Origin: Mobula hypostoma
Lineage: Eukaryota
Reading direction: 5' to 3'
Length of the DNA stretch: 64,000 nt
Assembly: GCF_963921235.1 (NCBI RefSeq)
Contig: NC_086097.1
Location: 147,872,001 to 147,936,000 of the forward strand
In this document: piece by piece, positions 7,373-60,395 of the stretch
Layout of the letters: each line of letters opens with the position of its first letter
How positions within the stretch are numbered: the stretch's first letter is position 1
The notes under the pieces: model-generated
What the model saw: the letters and a program-made list of their open reading frames with translations, nothing else
Told to the model about the DNA's origin: nothing
Databases searched by the model: none
Program-made: the position numbers and the translations under genes

Positions 7373-7529
7373 GTTTAAGTTCCTCATTCTCAGTGAAAAA
7401 CCCTTCAAGCAACAGACTAATCAATACAAGGTATAAAATAGTGAAGAAGAATGCAGGTTTCAATAATTTGACAACAAGCTCATCTGCTTTTTCCTGGAAG
7501 ACTAAAAAGGTCAACAACTCCTGTGTAAG
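7373..7529 (+). CDS. ZC3H3: Internal coding exon of zinc finger CCCH domain-containing protein 3 (157 bp, phase 1 in, phase 2 out)
   Basis: T-rich tract plus cacag acceptor (AG 7371-7372) and donor AG|gtaatc (GT 7530-7531). Peptide LSSSFSVKNPSSNRLINTRYKIVKKNAGFNNLTTSSSAFSWKTKKVNNSCVR resembles the ZC3H3 'TRYRIVKK...SWR' segment as I recall it. It splices in phase (AG+G=Arg) to the exon at 58204. Confidence 0.88.
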
Positions 7530-11078: not shown

Positions 11079-13700
11079 GCCTTCCTGATTTATTTCTTAA
11101 GTGTTCTCGTACATTTCTTATACTCCATAAGCACCTCATTTGTTCCTACTTGCCTATCCCTGCTATGCACCTCCTTTTTTCTCTTAACCAGGGCCTCAAT
11201 GTCTCTTGAAAACCAAAGTTTCCTACACTTGTTTATCTTTTATTCTTACAGGCACATGCAATCTTTGTACTCTCAAAATTTTGTTTTTGAAGTCCTCCCA
11301 CTTTTCAAGTACTCCTTTGCCAGAAAACAGCCTGTTCCTATCCACACTTGCCAGATCATTTCTGATAACCGCAGAATTGGCCTTTCTGTAATTTAGAATC
11401 TCAGACCAGACCAGACCTATGATTTTGCATATTTACTTTGAAACTAATGGCATTATGCTCACTGGATGCAAAGTGTCCCCCTACACAAACTTCTGTCACC
11501 TGCCCTGTCTTATTCCCTAATAGCAGAACAAGTATCACAAGAGGGGCAGGACTGGCAGCTCAGTATTTCGGTGTTCCATTGTTTTAGATGGGACAGAACA
11601 GGAGCTATACATACTGATTAAGGAAACTTTTCTGAACACATGACAAACTCCATTTCATCTAGTCCCACTCAATATGTTGGAAAGTTAAAATCACCTACTA
11701 TAACAGCTGAATCACAAGCAAAATCTGTAGATGCTGGAAATCCAAGCAACACACAAAATGCTGGAGGAACTGAGCAGACCAGGTAGCATCTATGGAAAAG
11801 AGTATATTCAACGTTTTGGGACAAGACCCTTCATCAGGATGTCTTGATGAAGGGTCTGGGCCCGAAACATTGACTACTCTTTTCATCCCATTCCAGCATT
11901 TTGTGTGTGATTCTATAACAGCCTTATCTTTCTTGAAAAAGTCTGCAATCTCTTTACAAATTTGTTCCTCTAAATCCCTTGGAGTTTTGGATAGGCAGTA
12001 ATATAGCCCCATTAACGTGGTTATACCTTTCTTATTTCTCAGTTCCATCCATAACGCCACATTAGTCGAGTTCTCCAGTATGTCCTGACAAAGTACTGCC
12101 ATGACATTTTCCCTGACTAGTAACGCCATCCCTCCTGCTCTGTCACATCTAAAACGATGGAACCCCGGAATATTGACCTGCCAGTCCAGCCCCTCCTCCA
12201 ACCAAGTCTCATTAATAGCTGCAATGTCATAATTCGAGGTGTTGATCCAAACCCTGAGCTCATCTGCCTTTCCTGTGATACTTCTTGCATTGAAACATGT
12301 GCAGCTCAGGACATTAGTTGCACGAGTCTCAACCTTTTGATTCCTCACTTTGTCTGAGGTCTTACGAGTGTCTGCCTCCACAACCTCTCCACTACCTTGC
12401 TGGCACTCTGGTTCCCAAACCCTGCAACTTTAATTTAAACCCCACCATATAGCATTAACAAACCTTTCTACTAGGATATTAGTCCCCCTCCAGTTCAAGT
12501 ACAAACCATCCCTTCTGTACAGGTCCCACTTTCCCTGGAAGAAAGCCCAATGATCCAAAAAAATCATAGCCCCTCCCCCCCCCCATCCTACAACTCTTAC
12601 CACGTGTTAAACTGTATAATCTTCCTAGTTTTTGGCCTCACTAGCACGTGGCACGGGTAGCAATCCTGAAATCGCAACCGTGGAGGTCCTGCCTTTTAAC
12701 TTAGCACCTAACTCCCTGAGCTCCCTTTGTAGAGCCTCGCCACTCGTTCTACCCATGTCATTCGTACCTATATGATCGCAACCTCCGACTGTTCACCCTC
12801 CCACTTCTAGAATGCTGAGGACTTGATCCGACATTTTCAGAACCCTGGCACCTGGGGGTGGGGGGAGAGGCAACATGCCATCCAGGAATTTTATTCTTGC
12901 CCAGAACCTGTTGTCAGTTCCCTTAACTAATGAATCCACTATCTCCACAGCACACCTCTTCTGCCCCCTTTCCATCAGAGTCACAAAGGCAGACTCAGTA
13001 CCAGAGACCTGATCACTGTGACTTTCCTCTGTTAGGTCATCCCCCAAAGTGGTAATACCTGTTGTTGAGGGGGATGATCACAGGAGTACTCTGCACTGGC
13101 TGTTTAACCCCTTTCCCCCGACAGACTAGCACCCAGTTTCCCGTGTCCTGCCTCTCTGTATGTCCTGTGTATGATCCTTTCAGCCTCCCAAATGATCCAG
13201 AGTTCATCCAGTTCCAGCTCCAACTCCTTAATGCTGATCATTAGAAGCTGCAGCTGGATGCACTTATCGCAGTTGCAGTCATCAGGGACACTGGAGATCT
13301 TCCTGCCTTCCCACATGAGGAGCTTTTAACTATCCTGCCTGGCAACTCTACTGTCCTAACTGAGCAGATATAATGAAGGGAAGGAAAAAAAAAACAAAAC
13401 CTAGAGCTTTTCTTCGTTTTGCTTTCATTGACTGAGGTCTGTCTTCGCTGAAGCCTTGAAGAGCTAAAGCCTCAAGATCAACACTCTAACTCTGTCCACT
13501 CTGACACTGGCCATAGCACTTGCCCCTGCCTTCCTTTAATTTGCTCTTGCTAATCAATCCCAGAAGCTGATTGGTCACTGGTCAGAGCTGAATTGTGTTA
13601 CCGAGATCCGCCGTTGCTTTTTTCTGCTGGGTCAGTGGACCTGAGTGACATCGCCTCCTGTTAAACTTCTGATGTCCTGATTGGTCACTGGTCAGAGCTC
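11079..13700 (-). mobile_element. CR1 LINE 5' half: 5' UTR, ORF1 (zinc finger/coiled coil, esterase-like) and APE endonuclease
   Basis: ORF 13104-13316 (CxC..CxxC, ELELELDEL), ORF 12793-13047 (IVDSLVKG), ORF 11698-12381 (FNARSI..INETWL..RCDR..GGMALL). A 23-bp 5' UTR duplication ctgattggtcactggtcagagct is present. Confidence 0.88.
11708..11912. mobile_element. Short fold-back Penelope-derived element with two back-to-back hammerhead motifs, inserted in CR1
   Basis: Perfect 10-bp TSD ctataacagc at 11698-11707 and 11913-11922. Central gacccttcatcaggatgtcttgatgaagggtc inverted junction. Confidence 0.85.
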
Positions 13701-14004: not shown

Positions 14005-14190
14005 TCCTTGAGAATCTTGAGGAGAGGAACTAAGCTCAAGCAGCATCTGTGGATGAAAGGAATTGTTGATGTTTCGGGACAAAACCCTGCATCATTTCCT
14101 GATGTAGGATCTCAACCTAAAACTGGAAGTTTCTGTCCTCCCAAAAATGTTTCTCAACGTATTGACTTACTCCAGCAGATTGTTTATTAC
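14005..14190. mobile_element. Degenerate Penelope pseudo-LTR fold-back element
   Basis: gaggaactaagc..cagcatctg..gtttcggga..ccctgcatca / cctgatgtagg.. arms. Confidence 0.55.
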
Positions 14191-22178: not shown

Positions 22179-23713
22179 AACAGCAATCACTGAATGAAAA
22201 TAGACAAAGTCAAAGCTGAGTTTATTGATATATGCAGAGGTACATGTGTTACAGGTACAATGAAAATTTTGCTAACAGCAGCATCACAGGCAGATAGCAT
22301 CAGTAAAGCAGCATTGATGAAGTATCAATTAAACATTTTTCTAAGAACTCAATTAGAGCAAGAAAATTATTAGACTTGTTTAGCATGGGAAAGAGATATC
22401 GTGCTGATATTCTTGTTATCCTTATGTATTTAACTTTGCTTTGAGAGATCTGATCTTTCCCCACTCACTTACTAACTGACGAAAGACGTTCATCTGCTTG
22501 GCTTTCGTGCTTCCATTTCACGTGCTAATTTTTGTTCCACCCATTTTTGTGACCTTTGTATTAAGGGAAGAAGTGCCTTTGTCTCCCTGGCCTTATCGGA
22601 TTCTAGGCCCACTTTTGGGTTCCCATTTTCCTTTTCATTTGCAGATTAATAATGATTTGTTGCCAATGAAAGAGTGTTATTTAAATAGATACTGTCCAGT
22701 TAACAAACATAGTATAATTTCCATAAAATCCAAGCCACCCAAGTTTCCCAATATTGGGAGGATTTTAAAATTGATGTCCTTTATAGCTGAAGAAGTGGAA
22801 CTCATCGTTGGTGTTTTTTTTGTAGTTTCTGCACTTTTAAAATATTTTCATATATATTGATTATATTGTACATGCATGTAACAGGCATATTAATGTTATA
22901 TTTTTGTAAGAGCTAGCAAGAAGCTTTGTGATAGTAAGCAACAGGCATTCTTCAGAAAGTCACAATCTTTCCTATTTTTTATCCTTCATAAATATGAAAT
23001 GTGCTATGGTCAATTAGCTCTGAAACCCAAATGTTACCCCTAACTCTGTATCTTGCCACCCGAATCTGCACTTTTGGTGGTTGAAAAAGATAAATGGAGG
23101 CCAGAAAAAAATGATAGTAATATGCTGCAGAATGCAATAGCCAGTGGTTTAATTTGTGGTTAGTCTGTCTGTTCAGATTGTACACTGTGAAGTAGTCAGC
23201 AATAAATTGGCAAGATATTTGATTTAACAACAAGGGAACTGGGACTGGAAAAATAAGACCTTTAAGTCATTTCACCAAGTTCAAAAATATAGATATAATC
23301 TCAACATTAACTACATTAATAGTAGCCGAAGCTGAGTTAAGAGAGCCATAAAGTATTGGCTAGAAAAATAGAAATTATATCCATCTCTCCTGCATGCACG
23401 TAATTTCCACACCCATCAAGAAATTCACTTGTACATATTACTGCCAGTGTTATGAGGCTGAACTAGCTGGGTTGATCTGTATGTTTTACATTATGGTAAC
23501 AGCAATCACAGAAGCTAGACCTAATAATTTGTGTCTACTTTACCAGGCACCTTAAGAATTAGCTTAATCAGTTTTAGTGATTCAATATTGATTTAAACAG
23601 GATATGAAATTGAAGGTAATTGCTCCAACATAGTAATAAAGTGCTTAATTTTTAGCAACATGCATAACCCACTGGAGGAACTGAGCAGGTTGGGCAGCAT
23701 CCATGGAAACGAA

Positions 23714-23751
23714 CAGTCAACGTTTCGAGCCGAGACCCTTCGTCAGGACTG
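23714..23751 (-). ncRNA. Minimal type I hammerhead ribozyme motif (intact core)
   Basis: Minus strand reads CAGUC-CUGACGA-A-GGGU(CUCG)GCUC-GAAA-CG-UU-GACUG: stem I CAGUC/GACUG, CUGANGA and GAAA cores, stem II, and a loopless palindromic stem III (AACGUU). Confidence 0.75.
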
Positions 23752-24308
23752 AAGAGGGAGGGGGCAGTGGCCTTATAAAGAAGGTGGGGAGAGGGTGGGA
23801 AGGAGAAGGCTGGTAGGTGCCAGGTGAAAAACCAGTAAGGGGAAAGATCAAGGGGTGAGAGAGGAGATAGGCAGGAAAGGTGAAGAAGGAATCGGGGAAA
23901 GCACAATGGGTAGTAGAAGGAGGCAGAACCATGAGGGAGGTGATAGGCAGCTGGAGGAGGAGGCAGAGTGAAACTGGGTTGGGGGAAGGGAGGGGGAGGG
24001 AATTACCGGAAGTTGGAGAATTCGGTGTTCATGCCAAGGGGAGGGAGACTACCCAGACGGTATATGAGGTGTTGCTCCTCCAACCTGAGTTGGGCCTCAT
24101 CATGGCAGTAGAGGAGGCCATTTATGGACATATCCGAATGGGACTGTGAAGCAGAGTTGAAGTGGGTGGCAACCCGGGAGATCCTGTCTGTTGTGGCGGA
24201 CAGAGTGGAGGTGCTTGACGAAGCCAGGTTTTTCACCTGGCACCTACCAGCCTTCTCCTTCCCACCCTCCCCCCACCTTCTTTATAGGGCCCCTGCCCCC
24301 TCCCTCTT

Positions 24309-24346
24309 CAGTCCTGACGAAGGGTCTCGGCCCGAAAGGTTGACTG
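24309..24346 (+). ncRNA. Minimal type I hammerhead ribozyme motif (stem III mutated)
   Basis: CAGUC-CUGACGA-A-GGGU(CUCG)GCCC-GAAA-GG-UU-GACUG. A C>G change breaks the AACGUU palindrome. Confidence 0.65.
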
Positions 24347-25269
24347 TTCGTTTCCACAGATGCTGCCCGACCTGCCAAGCTCCGCCAGCGTGTTGTGCAT
24401 GTTGCTTAATTTTTAGTACAGGTCTTGCCTAGTTTCCAGTTTCAATTTGGTTTTGTTCCCGTTTAGTCAAACACATTTATTGTAAGTGTATGTCTGTTTG
24501 ATGACTGATTTTTTTTCCCTGCTATTTGTTCTTTTCTCAATTCAATTTTGCTTTTTGTATTTTGATCAGGAAGCTTCTTGGATACTAAGGAGTTGAACTT
24601 AAATGTAGGATGATCATTGTTTTAATATTTTAAATTTTAAACTGTGAAATTGTCTCACTCCCTTGATTTTTTTCCAAATCCAGTAATCCCTCATGTAGAT
24701 TAAAGCAGGTTGGTAGTTTGTACAGTCTTTTAACATTGTCCCTCATGAATCTGAATTGACATGCTTGGGTATGAAACTCTTTTAGCTCTATTATCTTGCA
24801 TGTAATTTAATGTCTTTTTGTTTACTTGGTCAATTAACTCCAAAACCTGAGACAATAGTAAAGTGCATTAGGGTTACTTAATTACCTTATTACCTTCACT
24901 ATAAAATGCCTTTAATATCATTATTCCTTTCTTTATAGTGTACAACATGAACCTATATAAAGATTAGACGGTGAATTGCATTTAATGTAAAATTGATATT
25001 GTTTTTTTTTACTAATTAGTGTCACTACTCTGGTGTTTATTTTCTGTCCCTGTTACAGTGCAAGAGCACCTTAGGCACTTCACAGCCATTTTCAGATAAA
25101 CAGATCTACTGTACATCCTACAAATTGCATTTATGTAGTTCCTTACACATAATAAAACATGCCAGGGACGTTCTGCATTATTTTGCAGAATTTGATATGA
25201 AACACATGAGGAGACTGGTCAAGAATTGCATTTCAGCATGGTCTTAATAGCTGAAAGTAGGACAAGGGA

Positions 25270-25995
25270 CTTCGCAAAGGCATGGACGTCAGCGAGTTAG
25301 ACCGGCAGAAAGGATATAAAGGAAGGCAATTTTTTCCTTAGTGGTTTGATTGAGGCACGACTACACAAGTGAGTGGACGTCAGCAAGTTAGACCAGCAGG
25401 AAGGATATAAAAGAAGACAGTTTCTCATCAGTGGTTTGATCGACGCCCCAACTGTGCAAGCACGTGGATGTCAGTGAGTTAGACCGGTGGGAAGGATTTA
25501 AAAAGAAGACAGCTTTATAGAGTGGGCATTGGAATAGAGGGAAACAGAGTAGGAGGGCTTTGCTTCAACAGGGCTTCGGTGATAACGGGTCGAGGCAAGG
25601 TAAGTTACTTGTGAAGAGTAGGAATAGAAAGTATATCTGTGAGGCTGTGTCGAGGATCAGAGGAATCTTGGGGTCTGAGTCCATAGGACACTCAAAGCTG
25701 CTGCGCAGGTTAACACAAGAGGGCACAGTTTTAAAGTGTTTGGAAGTAGGTACAGAGGAGATGTCAGGGGCAAGTTCTTTTACGCTGAGGGTGGTGAGTG
25801 CGTGGAATGGGCTGCTGGCGACAGTGGTGGAGGCGGATACGATAGGGTGTTTTAAAAGACTCCTGGATAGGTATATGGAGCTTTTAAAAATAGAGGGCTA
25901 TGGGTAACCCTAGGTAATTTCTAAAGTAAGTATATGTTTGGCACGGCATCGTGGGCGGAAGGGCCTGTATTGTACTGTGGGGTTTCTATGTTTCT
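25270..25995 (+). mobile_element. Internally deleted CR1-derived element: tandem-monomer 5' region + short RT remnant + CR1 3' end
   Basis: 91-bp tandem units (tgga(c/t)gtcag at 25283, 25374, 25465), then gaggatcagaggaatcttgggg..aaagctgctgcgcagg (cf. 39635-39685) joined to the CR1 3' end with a tttctatgtttcta tail. Confidence 0.75.
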
Positions 25996-26309: not shown

Positions 26310-28231
26310 CAGGGGTCCCCAACCTTTTTTGCACAGCAGACCGGTTTAATATTGACAGTATTCTTGCAGACCATCCGGGGGGGCGCGGGAGTGGTGTTAA
26401 TCATGACCGGAATATAGGATATAGGTGTTAAGTCACTTATGAGTGGCTAATACACTCAATTTTGTTTCCAGAAGGGTTTATCTAACAAACTTAATATTAA
26501 GTACAGTGCATATTTTCCTCGCATGAATATAGTGATAAGTCAATTATAAGTCATAAGGGGGTTCCTTATGTCCAGTTTTTTCCACAATTTAGTTTTCATT
26601 GCATTCATTACAGAAAACTCCACTTCACAGAGATATGATGTTGGAAACGGAAGCAACATTTTCAGTGCTTTCGTGGCTATCTCAGGATGTTCAGCCTTGA
26701 CTTTGATCCAGAATGCCGGCAGAGATGTTATGTTAAACATACTTTTCAGCCCACCGTCATTTGCAAGCTCAAGGAGTTGATCTTCTTCCCGCGCTGACAT
26801 GGATGATTCACCGGGGGCATTCACAAATGGGTTACGGACCCATTCCTTTGCATGTCTTGGGTCATTTGCAGTTGGGAAATAACGCTCGAATTCTGTCGAC
26901 AGCGAAGATAGGTGTTCATGAACCAGCTGGGAGCCTCAGTCTGTCCCAGATTCGCAGCTAATGTTGGGAACATGTCAAATATGCCCCTGTCCACTTGCCG
27001 TCCCCACAGTTTCAGTTTGGCTGTGAAAGCAGACACTTTATCTGCCAACTTGAAGACAGTTGTCATTCTCCCCTGAAGTGACAAATTGAGTTCCTTGAGC
27101 AGGTTGAAGATGTCACACAGATAAGCAAGTTTTGCTATCCACTCCTCGTCACTGAAGTGTGCTTCCAGTGGTGACTTTTTTCCCAAAAGAAATCTCTGTA
27201 GCTGCTCTCTTAACTCAAAAACCCTGGCCAAGGCTCTCCCCCTTGACAGCCACCTGACTTCAATGTGTAAGAGAAGGTGTTTGTGCTCTGCATTCATTTC
27301 CTCGCAAAGCTGCTCAAACAGACGTGAGTTAAAGGCTTTTGCTTTGATGTGATCGATAACTTCAACAACTTCACTCAATACGCTATTAAGATCAGGTGAC
27401 ATTTTTCAGCTAGCCAACATTTCCCTGTGTGTGACAGTATGTAGACTGGCATTCAGGAGCAACCTCTTTGACTTGGGTAGTGAAACCAGATTCGTTAAGC
27501 CGTTCCAACAGCTGTGCTTGAATGTCCTCTGCTATGTCATCAATTCTCCTTGAAACTGTGGTAGCTGAAAGAGAAACCTGTGCCATCTTTTTAGCTGCAG
27601 CTTCTCCCAACAGTTCACAGCACATGTCCTTGGCAGCAGGCAGAATCAATTCTTCACCAACAGTGAAAGGCTTCTTAGCCTTAGCAATATGGCTAGCCAC
27701 TAAGTACGACGCTCTCAGAGCAGCAGCATTTGTGGAGGTGGTAGCTCTCAGCACTTGCTTCTGTCCCGCTTGCTCACGTTTTTTCCGCTCAGAAAACTCA
27801 ACGGGTTTGCCTTTAAGTGCAGGGTGCTTGGACTCAAGGTGCTGAGGCAGTTTTGAGGACTTCATTGCCTCATTAGACAGCTTGTCTCCACATATCACAC
27901 ACAGGGGGCTTGGAGTGTGTGAGTCGCCAGTCGCAATAAAGCCATATTTTATGTACGACTCGTATTTTCTGTTGAAGGAAGCTTTTTTTTTGCAGTCTCG
28001 GCTTCAGCTGTCTCTGCGTTATCATCATCGTTAGGCCATTTATGTCCCCTACCATTTCTTCCAAAGAAACTCTCAAGCGACATTTGTTTTTCACTCATCC
28101 AGTAGTTGTAGGTTAATGACCAACTGATCTCCTCGTGTGCGTTCAAGTTCAACGGTGGGCTTGACAGAGAATGAGGAAAGGTGCAGTTGACTCATATCGT
28201 TTCCGCGCGGCCCGGTGGTTGGGGACCACTG
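26310..28231 (-). mobile_element. hAT (Charlie/Buster, ZBED5/SCAND3-like) transposon with both ends; transposase frameshifted and internally deleted
   Basis: TIRs CAGGGGTCCCCAACC / GGTTGGGGACCACTG and a perfect 8-bp TSD agatagat at 26302-26309 and 28232-28239. BED finger CVICGDKLSNEAMK..HLESKHP, EVRWLSRG, LAYLCDIF and FPTSYLCE motifs. Confidence 0.95.
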
Positions 28232-40712: not shown

Positions 40713-41054
40713 TACTATTTAGTTATTTCTCAAAATAGGTTGACTTCTGTAAATTAAAGACATACAAATAATTTACACCATAACCAGGTCATTTTTTTTC
40801 TGAATCAGTATAATCTTTTCTCCAACGTTTCACAGCCTGAGTGGCATGCTGAAACATGTCTAATATCTTGCACCTCTGAAACCTTAAATCTGTTACTGCA
40901 GTGCCTTTTCCTGTATACTTATGACGCAGCTGAAATTATTTTTAAAAACATGTTCAAAAGTCAATCTTTTCACCTTTCATTAAGGCTATCATTTGCCTGC
41001 TAACCACAACAGTATACAAGTGATTTTTTAAAGAATTCTGTAAAGGTGAATCAT

Positions 41055-41929
41055 GGAATCATGCGGCCAAAAAGTTCTATTCAGAAGGTTCAAAGGAACA
41101 TCAAAATAAGCTTGATGCATTTTGGACACAAGTCCTGTGGACTGATGAAGTTAAAATAGAACTTTTTGGCTGCAATGAGCAAAGATATGTTTGGAGAAAA
41201 AAGGGTGCAGAATTTCATGAAAAGAACACCTCTCCAACTGTTAAGCATGGGGTTGGATCAAACATGCTTTGGGCTTGTGTTGCAGCCAGTGGCACGGGGA
41301 ACATTTCCTGGTAAAGGGAAGAATGAATTCAATTAAATACCAGCAAATTCTGGAGGCAAACATCACACTGTCTGTAATAAAAAAAAAGCCGAAGGTGAAA
41401 AGAGGATGGCTTCTACAACAGGATAATGATCCTAAACACACCTCAAAATCCACAATGGACTACCTCAAGAGGCGCAAGCTGAAGGTTTTGCCATGGCCAT
41501 CACAATCCCCTGACCTAAACATCATCGAGAATCTGTGGATAGACCTCAAAAGAGCAGTGCATGCAAGATGGCCCAAGAATCTCACAGAACTAGAAGCCTT
41601 TTGCAAGGAAGAATAGGCCAAAATCCCCCAAACAAGAATTGAAAGACTCTTAGCTGGCTACAAAAAGCGTTTACAAGCTATGATACTTGCCAAAGGGGGT
41701 GTTACTAAGTACTGCCATGCAGGGTGCCCAAACTTTTGCTTCGAGCCCTTTTCCTTTTTTGTTATTTTGAAACTGTAAAAGATGGAAATAAAAAAGTTTT
41801 CTTAAAATATTAAGGAATGTGTCATCTTTAACTTTATGCCTTTTGGAAATCAGTTCATCTTTTACTCGCTTAGCTATTCACAGTAACAGAAATTTTGACC
41901 AGGGGTGCCCAAACTTTTGCATGCCACTG
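41055..41929 (+). mobile_element. Tc1-like (DD34E) transposon, 5'-truncated, with IR/DR-type right end
   Basis: VLWTDEVKIELF, PTVKHG, QQDNDPKH and WPSQSPDLNIIE (34 residues between D and E). Direct repeat gggtgcccaaacttttgc near 41722 and 41903; end ..gccactg followed by TA. Confidence 0.92.
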
Positions 41930-53037: not shown

Positions 53038-53505
53038 ATGGTTTAAATCTTAGCCAAAACTTCTGGTTGAGATCTTTACAAGTGGAAGTGCACTCAATTT
53101 AATATCTCATGTGACAGATGGTACCTTGACAGAGTTCTACTCCCTTAAGATTACCATGAACTTTGATCCTGAATAGTCCTCTGCCTATAGGTTGAGGCTT
53201 AAACATGCAAACGTTTGACACTGATGAGAAACACTGATCAAAGGTTGTTACCTTAAAGGACAACACTAACCTTTTGCCTTCAACTAACCAAACTTCTAAC
53301 TATATTTTTCTCTACGGTTAAGGTGCTCAGTTTACTATCTGATTGAGTCTTTACCGAATGCTGCCTAAGAACTGTTGCATATTCCTACCTTGCAAATGAA
53401 TTTTCTAGTTGATTCTGTTTATAACTGTATCAATTTATATTGGTTTATTCCCTTACATGAGATTAGTTGTAGCTCTAATTTATTCGGGATTAAAGGTTTC
53501 TTGTT

Positions 53506-53628
53506 CACGCTGGAGGAACTCAGCAGGTCAGGCAGCATCCGTGAAAAAAGACGGGTTGACGTTTCGGACCAGAACCCTTCGTCAGCACTGAGACTTTGAC
53601 CCCAGCATCTGCAGATTATTTTGTGTTT
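53506..53628. mobile_element. Short Penelope pseudo-LTR-derived element with a minus-strand hammerhead core
   Basis: Perfect 13-bp TSD aaggtttcttgtt at 53493-53505 and 53629-53641. Minus strand CUGACGA-A-GGGU(UCUG)GUCC-GAAA-CG-UC. Confidence 0.82.
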
Positions 53629-54428
53629 AAGGTTTCTTGTTACTGGAGCCATTGTTTCTTCTCAGTTCCACTTTTCATTCATATCAGTCAATATCTTTTT
53701 CTTGGAAATGCATTTGTGCCCTGCACCTCTATGGAATTTTCTTGACATCCTCTTCAGTGTTAGAATAATGTGGGATTTCGATCCAAAATTTTGATAGCTC
53801 ATCTCCCCCACTGACACTGCTTGACCCACTGAGTTCCTCCAAGAGATTTGTTAGTTGTTTGTGTAAGTTTTGCTGTTTTATGTTTAGTACATTGACTGTT
53901 TGTCATGGTTGACTAGTACACAATGTCATCACTCTACAATTGATTAATACAATTGAAAATATACTACTAACCTTAAAATTAAAGATACTTAGAAAAAGTT
54001 GTTCTTCTGACTTCTCCCAAGCAACTTCTCACCGATCTAGTGCAAGCTAAAGGATGCACTGCAATGGCATTGATGCGGCAGAAAATGAAATTTCCTGATT
54101 ATCCCACACTGTCAAAATTTAGTTAGTTTACCAGGAATTGCACTTTATTGCATTCAAATATGCCACCAGGTCTTCCTTTCCCTAGGCCTAGTTGAAGGAT
54201 GGCTAATTGAGTGGATGAACTTACCTGGATTCCTCATTACCACTCCAGGCAGCATGGCTGGCAGGGATTACACTGGATGAGGAGAGCTTAAGTGAACATT
54301 GTCTGCGCTGTTTGGGGATGGTGGAGAGGAGAAGGTGGCTTGGCATAATTGAATATGGTAACTGGTTGTATATAGGTTAAAAAGATGTAGACTACTGAGT
54401 TGTGGAGAAGCCAAGGATTTAAATGGTA

Positions 54429-56640
54429 CTAGACAATGGGGTGACCCGTTGGGGCACCCTTTGAGAGAAAAGTAGTGCAGACTGACGTGACCAGAATGAA
54501 CATTAGATTTCCCTGAATGCTCTTGCTATCGCTTTGCTTTGGAAGTTAAAGAAGAAAAACTCAGTTTATTAAAGAAGAAAAACGCATAGCAAAACAAATA
54601 TAGCTCCTCGTTTATCAAAGGACACTTTTGATGACAACATTTCTGGTTGATCTGCCACCCTTCACGAATAAATACTGTAACGTTTTCATTTCTTTTTCCC
54701 TAGTTTAAAGCCACATACAGCTGACCATGCTGGAATACTGGTTTCTTCAGATAAATCAACACATTCTCCATGGTTTGGCCTTGTGCCTCATGTATAGTCA
54801 TAGCAAAGCATGACTGTATCAGGAACTGGCTCCGCTGAAGAGGGACATCTTCCCCTTTTGCTAAACTGATAGTAATTCTTGGGATCATGACAATGTCATT
54901 TTTGAACGCACCAATGTTTATCTTGGCTATGATGAGACTGTCGTGCAGTTCTTCCACCATCATTCGCGTTCCATTGCAAAGCTTTGGTGGATCCAAGTTC
55001 CTCAATGAAATGATGGGAGATCCCCTCTTCAATTCCAGTTTATGTGGTGACAATCCAGAGAGTTCGACTGAATCAAGGAATTCTGTTGGAAAATGAGTGG
55101 CTTTAGCTCCTTAACTTACGGCACTGAAGGAACAGTATTCTTTCATGATTCCAGGGAAGCGACTAATGTTTTTTCACATCATTTCATTGAGAGGAACCAA
55201 AATAGAATTCCTGGAGAACAGTTCTGCTGGATTGTCGAATGTTGGGTAGATGAAATCAATACATTCTTCCATAGTTTTTGCTGGCAAAATCATATCTTCA
55301 GGTAATTCGATTTCATCGTTTTCATTTTTCTCAATCTTGTCTTCTCCAACATCCATTAAGAACTCAGAATATCGTTCTTCTCCCTCACTCAATGGCATGT
55401 TTCTCTTCAATTGAAACTTGATGATGCTTCTCCATAAGTAGGATTTTTTATGCATGAATTCTCCATATCAGCATCATTTCCTCCTCGTTTCACAACTGCT
55501 AGAAACTGACGGAAATTGTCACAGCAAATGGTTAAAATACTCCCGAAGGCCTCATTCTTGCCTCATATATAATGAAGAGCCCGGTCCACGGCTTCGAAGC
55601 TCTCCCTCCTCCTAATCATGGGGCACTCATCCCAGACAATAAGCCTCGCATTTCGGAGTAAATTTGCAGTATCAGTGTTTTTATCGATGTTACAAAGTGC
55701 ATCCTCATTGACTTTGAGGGGCATCTTGAATCTTGAATGCGCTATCCTACAACCAGGCATCAATGTTGCTACAATACTGGATGATGCTACAGCAATAGCA
55801 GCACCTCCATCTCCCCTAATTTTAGCGAGGATCAAGTTGATGATAAATATCCCCATTCCTCCTGGTGCATCAATGAAAATCATTGAAGAGAGATTCCTTT
55901 CCAAGAGTCACACACATATTCATATACTTCTTTTTGCTCATTATTCAATAGGTGCTCCTTCTGTGAAACAAATTCCTGCTGTTTGTCTGTGTTGTATTGC
56001 AGTTCATGCAAAAATTCCAGATTGCCAGCACCTTGAGTAATTGTACCGTTTCTCGGTGTCCGCAAGTTATATTCTTCAAGTGTTTTGCCCAAGTTCTTAA
56101 GTTTCTCTTGGAAATACAGAAGAGTTTGTCCATGATGCCTCTCATTGATCATGATATTAGGATCATTGATAGTTCTCTTCATTGGTAAGAAATCTTCAGA
56201 CATTGCATTCTTGAACCGGTTCCGTAATTGTTGTGGATTGTTGATTTCAGTGTTTGTTAGCAAGACGACAAACAAATCTCTCATTGCTGTGGGCATTTTT
56301 GTTCTCTCTGCCTCTTTCATAGTTTGCTACCAATGATCATCAGCTTGCAACAACCCTCTCTCTCTGCAGACGTCTTTGAATGATGGAAGGATATCATGTG
56401 TTTTCAAATGATTCGAAAGATACTGGCCCCTTTATGTGATGAAGAAGTCGTCTCAAATAGTAGAGGTCACCACTTCGTGGAGAAACAGTAAACACTCGAC
56501 CCAGAACATTTGCTTCAGAAATCCCAGAGTAGTCCTCCACTCTTTTCCCCATTTTCCTTCTTTCCCATCTCTTATTAGTCCAAGTGTGGAATCTGGGAAT
56601 AGGGTGTTTCGAAGTACTTCATTACAATAAGACTTAAATA
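54429..56640 (-). mobile_element. Helitron (Pif1-like helicase region, pseudogenised) with canonical 3' end
   Basis: Helicase motifs FIDAPGG, AVASS..AHSRFK, IVWDECPM, LRNLDPPKLCNGTR, FAMTI..QGQT, HGQLYVAL, plus LYYLRRLLHH upstream. The minus-strand 3' hairpin gggtgcccc-aac-gggtcaccc is followed by CTAG|T at 54429. 5' end not located. Confidence 0.92.
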
Positions 56641-58203: not shown

Positions 58204-58388
58204 GTCACTCCTGCTGAACCGAGCCAGACTGAGCAGTAGTTACAGGTTCCTTCAGCAGAGATGGAAAACAAAAGGCATGCGATGTATTGGGGGAGTGTTG
58301 TATCGTGTATCTGCCAACAAACTTGCAAAAAGCAGTTCTGTTCCCATCAGAACTGGAGTCACAAATGCAAGGAGTACTGTGAAATCAG
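58204..58388 (+). CDS. ZC3H3: Next internal coding exon of ZC3H3 (185 bp, phase 2 in, phase 1 out)
   Basis: Strong polypyrimidine tract ttctcttctttcttttcttgcag and donor CAG|gtaaaa. Peptide SLLLNRARLSSSYRFLQQRWKTKGMRCIGGVLYRVSANKLAKSS carries the ZC3H3 'KGxRCIGGVLYxVSANKL' motif that precedes the CCCH fingers. Confidence 0.93.
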
Positions 58389-59789: not shown

Positions 59790-60395
59790 AAGAAAAGAAT
59801 GGTCTTCAGGCATGTCACAGGTAGACAAGGTGGTGAAGGAGGTATCTGACCTGCCGCTTTTCATCAGTGAGGATACGGAGTTTAGAAGTTGAGAGGTAAT
59901 GTTGCAGTTGTACAAGATGTTGGTGAGATCACAAACGGGTATAATGTATAGCTTTGGTTACCCTTTCATAGGAAGGATGTTAGTAAATAGAAAGTGCATA
60001 AAGAAGATTTACAAGAATCTTGACAGGACTCAGGGGTCTGTTACAGGGAGAAGAAGGGCAGACTAAGACTTACTTCCTTGTACAATATCAATATTTAAAA
60101 CACAAAATACTCTGCAGATGCTGGGGTCAAAGCAACATTCACAACACGCTGGAGGAACTCAGCAGGTCGGGCAGCATCCGTGGAACTGATCAGTCGATGT
60201 TTCGGGCTGGAACCTGACGAAAGTTCCCAACCTGCTGAGTTCCTCCAGCATGTTGTGAGTGTCAATATTTAAAAGATATGTCCCAAAGGATAAAAGATAC
60301 GTTACAAATGTGGGCCAAGTGGACTAAATTAGATGGGCATCTTGATACATATGGATGAGTTGGACAGTTGGGCCAGAGGGCCTTTTTCCAGCGGT
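59790..60395 (+). mobile_element. Old CR1 3' fragment hosting a Penelope-derived insertion
   Basis: gaggtaatgttgcagttgtacaagatgttggtgag.. and CR1 3' UTR remnants. Confidence 0.6.
60101..60261. mobile_element. Short fold-back Penelope-derived element
   Basis: Perfect 13-bp TSD tcaatatttaaaa at 60088-60100 and 60262-60274. Arms ctggaggaactcagcagg / cctgctgagttcctccag, with partial hammerhead cores. Confidence 0.85.

Follow-up and report, generated by a model that had tools for sequence, protein, structure and literature searches.

Minimal hammerhead ribozymes have been described in the pseudo-LTRs (pLTRs) of metazoan Penelope-like elements (PLEs), and the supplement of PMC4209133 gives their consensus as CUGANGAH...GAAAN-NUH. 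According to the same paper, single minimal motifs show no cleavage and dimers show low cleavage. Eight of nine Xenopus dimer elements did not cleave (bioRxiv 10.64898/2026.07.22.740005), and the hammerhead of a PLE from the anole cleaves only with protein (PMC11167929). Once purified, the protein of this anole element cuts both strands, extends both and favours AT-rich/ATT sites (PMC11167929, Frangieh et al.). Its reverse transcriptase (RT) starts at two internal points that bound a 'tail' and uses uncleaved RNA, and hammerhead cleavage is unneeded for insertion (PMC11167929).

Here we describe a locus from the ray Mobula hypostoma. All positions refer to the window, which is the whole stretch of DNA that was analysed (64,000 nucleotides of contig NC_086097.1). 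By the features examined, the locus is an EN+ PLE that has been truncated and has inverted pLTRs with minimal hammerheads of the standard type. The motif type, two bases that an earlier note on this DNA had taken for variants, and the inverted layout are already in print. As a ribozyme the locus is of no importance, as the copy has decayed and its motifs are masked by structure; what value it retains lies in its integration footprint, which is considered below.

The insertion, its host intron and other relics in the window

The insertion is a 747-bp PLE copy in which the C-terminal tail of a GIY-YIG endonuclease lies between two 178-bp inverted pLTR arms (Table 1). The arms are complementary at 163 of the 178 nt, with 393 nt between them, and the direct repeat that flanks them is exact (14/14), which agrees with the approximately 180-bp inverted arms and the 14-bp repeat of the earlier note. 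The final 2 nt of the right arm overlap the duplication, and the inner junction between the two PLE pieces can be placed to within about 4 nt. EN+ PLEs have a pLTR, direct or inverted, after the ORF stop and a short target-site duplication (TSD), and all of these are found at 23642-24416; the view that an inverted pLTR is a typical product of PLE integration is supported. We conclude that the locus is very probably a 5'-truncated Neptune-type PLE that was dead on arrival and has since decayed. The 15 ATG-led codons in the pLTR may be the start of the ORF of a next unit; the first 12 amino acids of Pen2a from Adineta vaga lie in the pLTR (PMC3846280).

Table 1. Coordinates of the PLE insertion, its parts and the flanking ZC3H3 exons in the window
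Feature	Position	Strand	Remark
ZC3H3 coding exon upstream of host intron	7373..7529	+	
Target-site duplication, left copy, 14 bp, AT-rich	23642..23655		14/14 identical
Main PLE copy, 571 bp, 5'-truncated	23656..24226	-	ORF end, 3' UTR, pLTR
Direct (3') pLTR arm, 178 bp	23656..23833	-	
15 open codons from ATG, in both arms	23656..23700	-	candidate next-unit ORF start
Minimal type I hammerhead, consensus-matching	23714..23751	-	one G-U in helix II; antisense to ZC3H3
3' UTR, pyrimidine-rich	23834..24002	-	part of hairpin loop
GIY-YIG endonuclease C-terminal tail	24003..24222	-	stop 24003-24005; one-base frameshift 24174; GIY/YIG motifs absent
Inverted pLTR arm	24227..24404	+	same terminal element nucleotide as left arm
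Second minimal hammerhead	24309..24346	+	sense in host pre-mRNA; helix III palindrome lost, G at 24338
Target-site duplication, right copy	24403..24416		first 5 nt also match element continuation in paralogue
ZC3H3 coding exon downstream of host intron	58204..58388	+	

The identity of the element comes from its ORF. The tail at 24006-24173 (minus strand) is identical at 48 of 56 residues to the C-terminus of a ray protein, P0002 (a Hypanus sabinus gene model), and the tblastn match runs 16 residues further in another frame, which gives the one-base frameshift. The PLE identity that had been proposed is supported. P0002 has an RT-thumb-like sequence, a CX3CX2C linker and a GIY-YIG region, the last with a Pfam match (E 8e-4) that is below the curated cut-off. 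The fragment is the last 72 residues of the endonuclease, including both His of the CCHH finger. It begins after the GIY and YIG motifs, which lie upstream of the truncation and are seen in relatives only; the 'GIY-YIG tail' of the earlier note is therefore real as a C-terminal tail, but frameshifted and short of the motifs for which it was named. A Pfam scan of the 73-aa ORF fragment itself found no family, and a protein search of the fragment at near lengths found no match. HMMER found 96 relatives, and two of the eight that were scanned (P0048 and P0085) matched both RVT_1 and GIY-YIG; in these two, RT and endonuclease are in one ORF, and the RT is absent from the truncated copy. A C-terminal GIY-YIG endonuclease with a CCHH finger, as in EN+ PLEs, is found in the fragment and its relatives taken together. 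The CX2-5CxxC linker between RT and endonuclease is outside the fragment; four ray relatives with 75-86% identity (P0002, P0004, P0006 and P0008) have it. Relatives carry the CX3CX2C linker and the CCHH finger, a pattern that is Neptune-type and absent from Penelope/Poseidon (PMC8557442), and so the element would be Neptune-type by its relatives, through which alone the clade is assigned.

The endonuclease tail of this PLE is also carried by six public gene models (P0001, P0002, P0005, P0007, P0009 and P0036). Names among them are ATP synthase C3-like, DIPK1C, VKORC1L1 and ABHD14A, and by Pfam they also include a 7TM receptor and a LAMP-domain protein. This may reflect exonisation or an annotation artefact.

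The insertion is located in an intron, as the earlier note had supposed. The ORF at 58204-58388 shares 97% identity with ZC3H3 of Mobula birostris, and the host intron (7530-58203, 50,674 bp) has AG/GT sites that join the two flanking exons in frame. Relative to the transcript of ZC3H3, a plus-strand gene, the right arm is sense, and both the main PLE body and the left hammerhead are antisense. A search of sequencing runs listed no RNA run with words from the insertion; DNA runs of a second organism contain 0.46-0.47 of the query words.

The window contains many other relics. An nhmmer search of the 64 kb with the arm gave 13 further arm-like matches at E up to 1, nine of them below 0.01. Head-to-head pairs were seen by inspection at six of the nine other relic places examined, and three of the nine have exact flanking repeats, of 10, 13 and 13 bp. 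At 53493-53641 a minus-strand hammerhead arm is joined to a plus-strand piece inside a 13-bp duplication; this second piece is a 35-nt tail only, is absent from the first piece and resembles twin priming on one RNA. The head-to-head relic at 60088-60274, from a close subfamily, has a 13-bp duplication, a tail on the left arm only, and C17 followed by G. Back-to-back hammerheads of another subfamily are present at 11698-11922; the duplication there is 10 bp, and the left arm has a tail-like extension. Head-to-head hammerhead relics that are older and lack an exact flanking repeat are at 1085-1247, 2130-2271 and 14024-14182. The optional tail of 30-40 bp is represented by a 32-35-nt extension in the paralogues at 60098-60132 and 53594-53628 and is absent from the copy at 23656-24404.

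Unrelated repeats are also present. A 91-bp tandem unit is present three times at 25268-25514, with copies that are 68-82% alike, directly before a LINE 3' fragment. We take the frameshifted ORFs at 26540-28003 (minus strand) to resemble a hAT/Buster-type transposase, although Pfam gave no significant match to them. Presumably the broken ORFs at 54700-56326 (minus strand) resemble a Helitron helicase and those at 41024-41616 (plus strand) a Tc1-type transposase.

The hammerhead motifs and their predicted activity

The hammerhead in each arm consists of a 5-bp helix I, CUGACGA plus an A, a 4-bp helix II, GAAA, two nucleotides, a U and U17. A strict descriptor of minimal hammerheads has exactly two matches in the 64-kb window (23714-23751, minus strand, and 24309-24346, plus strand) and none in 300 Markov-shuffled windows. 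A scan with hammerhead models, which the earlier note had proposed as a check, recovers neither: Rfam has no hammerhead match at E up to 10 across 22500-25600. A 29-nt hammerhead pattern had no matches in viral contigs and none in metagenome contigs. The core CUGANGAH / GAAAN-NUH and helices I and II are nevertheless present in both arms, and this match to the consensus supports the earlier assignment of both as minimal type I hammerheads of the kind that requires a dimer.

The earlier note had also described a loopless stem III made of the palindrome AACGUU. We take the outer A and U of this hexamer to be core positions A14 and U17 in the established hammerhead numbering. The palindrome proper of helix III in the left arm is 4 nt, A15.1-C-G-U16.1. 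The left arm, with C and G at 15.2 and 16.2, has the loopless palindromic stem, and the right arm, with G at both, does not. The predicted cut in the left hammerhead is between 23719 and 23718.

The extra A and the U at the cleavage position had been called variant features, but both are standard. By our own count of the PLE examples in the supplement of PMC4209133, 54 of 56 have the extra nucleotide (an A in 10 of 11 vertebrate rows), 24 of 56 have U17 and 15 of 56 have the same GAAACGUU. In engineered hammerheads GUU is a permitted triplet, not the best one (PMC9217987, PMC3138052).

CpG decay was considered as the sole reading of U17. The 17/1.1 dinucleotide is TG in six of the 12 window copies (one TG row is gapped), CA in four, CG in one and TA in one, a spread that fits decay from CG. 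This sole reading was rejected, as U17 is found in both arms although most of their other CpGs are kept, and many of the published examples have U17 as well; for the same reasons, U17 was probably in the donor already. Covariation in helices I and II was scored in the 12 window copies, which are mostly decayed: 76% of 84 cells are paired, two of nine pairs have a two-sided change, and 257 of 500 shuffles are as high. Covariation in these copies thus does not exceed that of the shuffles.

When folded as isolated 38-mers, both motifs form helices I and II (pair probability 0.86-0.98). Within the whole insertion, on either strand, the probability of helix I/II pairing is 0.0, because the arms pair with each other. 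The arm-spanning strand folds at -445.6 kcal/mol (z -23 vs 20 shuffles), and a 38-nt sense/antisense duplex has about -72 kcal/mol vs -7.5 to -10.5 kcal/mol for the hammerhead helices. In host transcripts that end just past the right hammerhead, the hammerhead helices are likewise buried. From these foldings, which are at equilibrium and ignore proteins, we predict that both hammerheads are almost certainly silent where they sit. The construct 23700-23765 that the earlier note had chosen for cleavage in vitro would be a poor monomer, with helices I and II predicted not to form (probability 0.0). It is plausible that the left motif would cleave in vitro as an engineered tandem dimer, because it matches the published consensus.

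The earlier note had presented the ribozyme as young and probably catalytically competent inside the host intron. A young copy with a hammerhead that actively cleaves RNA in the ZC3H3 intron would be consistent with the intact duplication and with the left motif, which agrees with the published consensus throughout the core, forms helices I and II when folded alone (0.87-0.98) and has a 6-nt palindrome that can self-pair (-3.5 kcal/mol). However, this intact motif is on the wrong strand for the host transcript, the sense hammerhead is non-palindromic and would be unable to form the dimer helix (+2.6 kcal/mol), and both motifs are buried in the hairpin, partial transcripts included. Furthermore, the published record cited above is one of uncleaved single motifs and low dimer cleavage (PMC4209133) and mostly uncleaved Xenopus dimer elements (bioRxiv 10.64898/2026.07.22.740005), and the arm divergence, CpG decay and ORF frameshift do not suit a young copy. 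We therefore regard an active ribozyme at this place as very improbable.

The hairpin also raises the question of whether the locus, rather than being a ribozyme, matters to the host as intronic double-stranded RNA, either as an editing substrate or as a source of small RNAs. In the host-sense strand the arms are predicted to form a hairpin of 178 bp with 92% complementarity, and small RNAs from Penelope copies have been described in a rotifer (PMC3846280). Nevertheless, there is no sign of selection for pairing, as 15 differences have accumulated between the arms, evenly on both in the part that can be polarised, and similar pairs are scattered through the same ZC3H3 intron. Such a role seems improbable to us.

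Age of the copy and origin of the inverted arm

Judged from the decay within the locus, the insertion appears not to be recent. The arms differ at 15 of 178 sites (8.4%), or nine of 160 outside CpG columns. When the paralogue at 60133-60203 is taken as outgroup, six private changes fall in the last 67 nt of each arm. One CpG in the arms has become TG in one arm and CA in the other, which is independent decay, and five of the 56 residues of the ORF tail depart from the majority of seven relatives. Together with the frameshift, these observations argue against the word 'young'. Against great age, the two copies of the duplication are still identical. The CpG o/e ratio is 0.36 in the element vs 0.22 and 0.15 in the flanks, and the copy is among the better preserved in the window, as the only two strict descriptor matches fall in it. 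The divergence would overstate the age if the arms came from two different donor loci. A literal clock with the epaulette-shark rate (7e-10 per generation) was rejected: it gives 21-64 million generations, implausibly old for a ray locus, and it was used only for 'not recent' because this figure is too old to trust. The differences are uneven along the arms, with five in the 115 nt before the cut site vs 10 in the 63 nt after it (p 0.011; p 0.16 without CpG columns). This unevenness may be due to chance plus CpG, to conversion of the inner part or to two donors.

How did the head-to-head arms arise? We lean towards double target priming from a staggered cut on uncleaved RNA. The GIY-YIG/RT protein of the element would have nicked both strands of the AT-rich site, up to 14 nt apart. 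At each 3'-OH, reverse transcription would have begun from one and the same point of the element, which is 63 nt past the hammerhead cut site. The template would have been element RNA that was uncleaved (or religated) at the hammerhead site, because both arms run across it. One cDNA of about 571 nt and another of about 178 nt would then have been joined head to head, and repair would have filled in the 14-bp duplication. The hammerheads travel with the pLTR as passengers. Cleavage as dimers is presumed for them in active tandem elements; at this locus they have no partner on the same strand, and any transcript across it would fold the arms into one long duplex that hides the motifs.

Both outer ends of the insertion are outward-facing element 3' ends that adjoin the exact duplication, a geometry that would be expected from first-strand synthesis at both nicks. 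The cutting and extension of both strands by the anole protein, its AT-rich targets and its use of uncleaved RNA (PMC11167929) also favour this reading, as do the exact 10-13-bp repeats at three of the nine other relic places. The inverted arm could instead come from fold-back (self-priming), for example on an antisense template, and not from a second target-primed event. Fold-back was proposed for rotifer Penelope from palindromic junctions (PMC3846280, Discussion), and it would account for the common terminal nucleotide of the two arms and for the U17 that both have. Yet 393 nt separate the arms, the would-be fold-back point is complementary at only one of four bases, and the right arm does not run on into an inverted copy of the left flank. 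Nor can the locus at 53493 be a fold-back copy, because its second piece is absent from its first. We consider fold-back unlikely here and prefer double target priming. The primer ends match the element continuation over 2 and 5 nt, with one paralogue as proxy, and this match between primer and RNA is a lead only.

A wider proposal can be made tentatively, namely that ray genomes are littered with TSD-flanked head-to-head Neptune relics, each of which arose from two independent target-primed events, one per nicked strand. The RNA would have been uncleaved, and 2-5 nt of pairing between primer and RNA would have guided these events. If this is true, the ray relics would be a natural test on a genome scale of double priming vs antisense self-priming as the source of inverted pLTRs, and the reported independence of PLE initiation from homology to the cut DNA would have to be qualified.

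Comparison with known systems

The value that remains in this locus is a clean PLE integration footprint, in which both ends would be priming ends and both templates uncleaved, and which bears on the origin of inverted pLTRs. With this locus, the range of PLE minimal hammerheads also comes to include a ray. No cartilaginous fish is among the 56 examples or in Table S1 of PMC4209133, and in the openly searchable literature we found no description of PLE minimal hammerheads in rays.

The hammerheads themselves resemble those in the pLTRs of metazoan PLEs (PMC4209133), with the same CUGANGAH core plus extra nucleotide, G10.1-C11.1 pair, loopless palindromic helix III, short helix I and U-rich 5' flank. 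The 8-nt core recurs in the minimal hammerhead of Acropora digitifera Neptune, where helix II is nearly identical too, and the legend to Fig. S4A of that paper likewise describes a 5'-truncated PLE with a second minimal hammerhead on the opposite strand at its 5' end. Unlike the palindromic motifs of PMC4209133, the right-arm copy in the ray has lost its palindrome.

The layout is that of truncated Penelope copies of A. vaga (PMC3846280) and of PLEs in general (PMC8557442, Fig. 2 legend): a 5'-truncated unit, an inverted copy at the 5' end, a short TSD and a pLTR with first codons. The TSD is 8-10 bp in A. vaga (PMC3846280) and 14 bp in the ray copy. The ray copy also differs from A. vaga in having no palindrome at the inner junction, and it has no tail at either end, whereas an optional 30-40-bp tail at one end is described in these two sources.

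PAc, the PLE of Anolis carolinensis (PMC11167929), shares the AT-rich target, extension on both strands and two RT starts that bound a tail, and its hammerhead is dispensable for insertion, as we infer for the ray copy. However, PAc is a Poseidon and the ray copy is Neptune-type, and initiation by PAc was reported to occur without homology to the cut DNA, in contrast to the matches of 2 and 5 nt here, for which a paralogue is the proxy.

Finally, animal non-LTR retrozymes (bioRxiv 10.64898/2026.07.22.740005) bear hammerheads, are related to pLTRs and are reported from one chondrichthyan genome. We rejected this identity, as the arms are inverted and there is no tandem unit at the locus. Non-LTR retrozymes are head-to-tail tandem repeats, whereas the ray copy has its two pieces head to head, keeps a remnant of an ORF and is flanked by a TSD.
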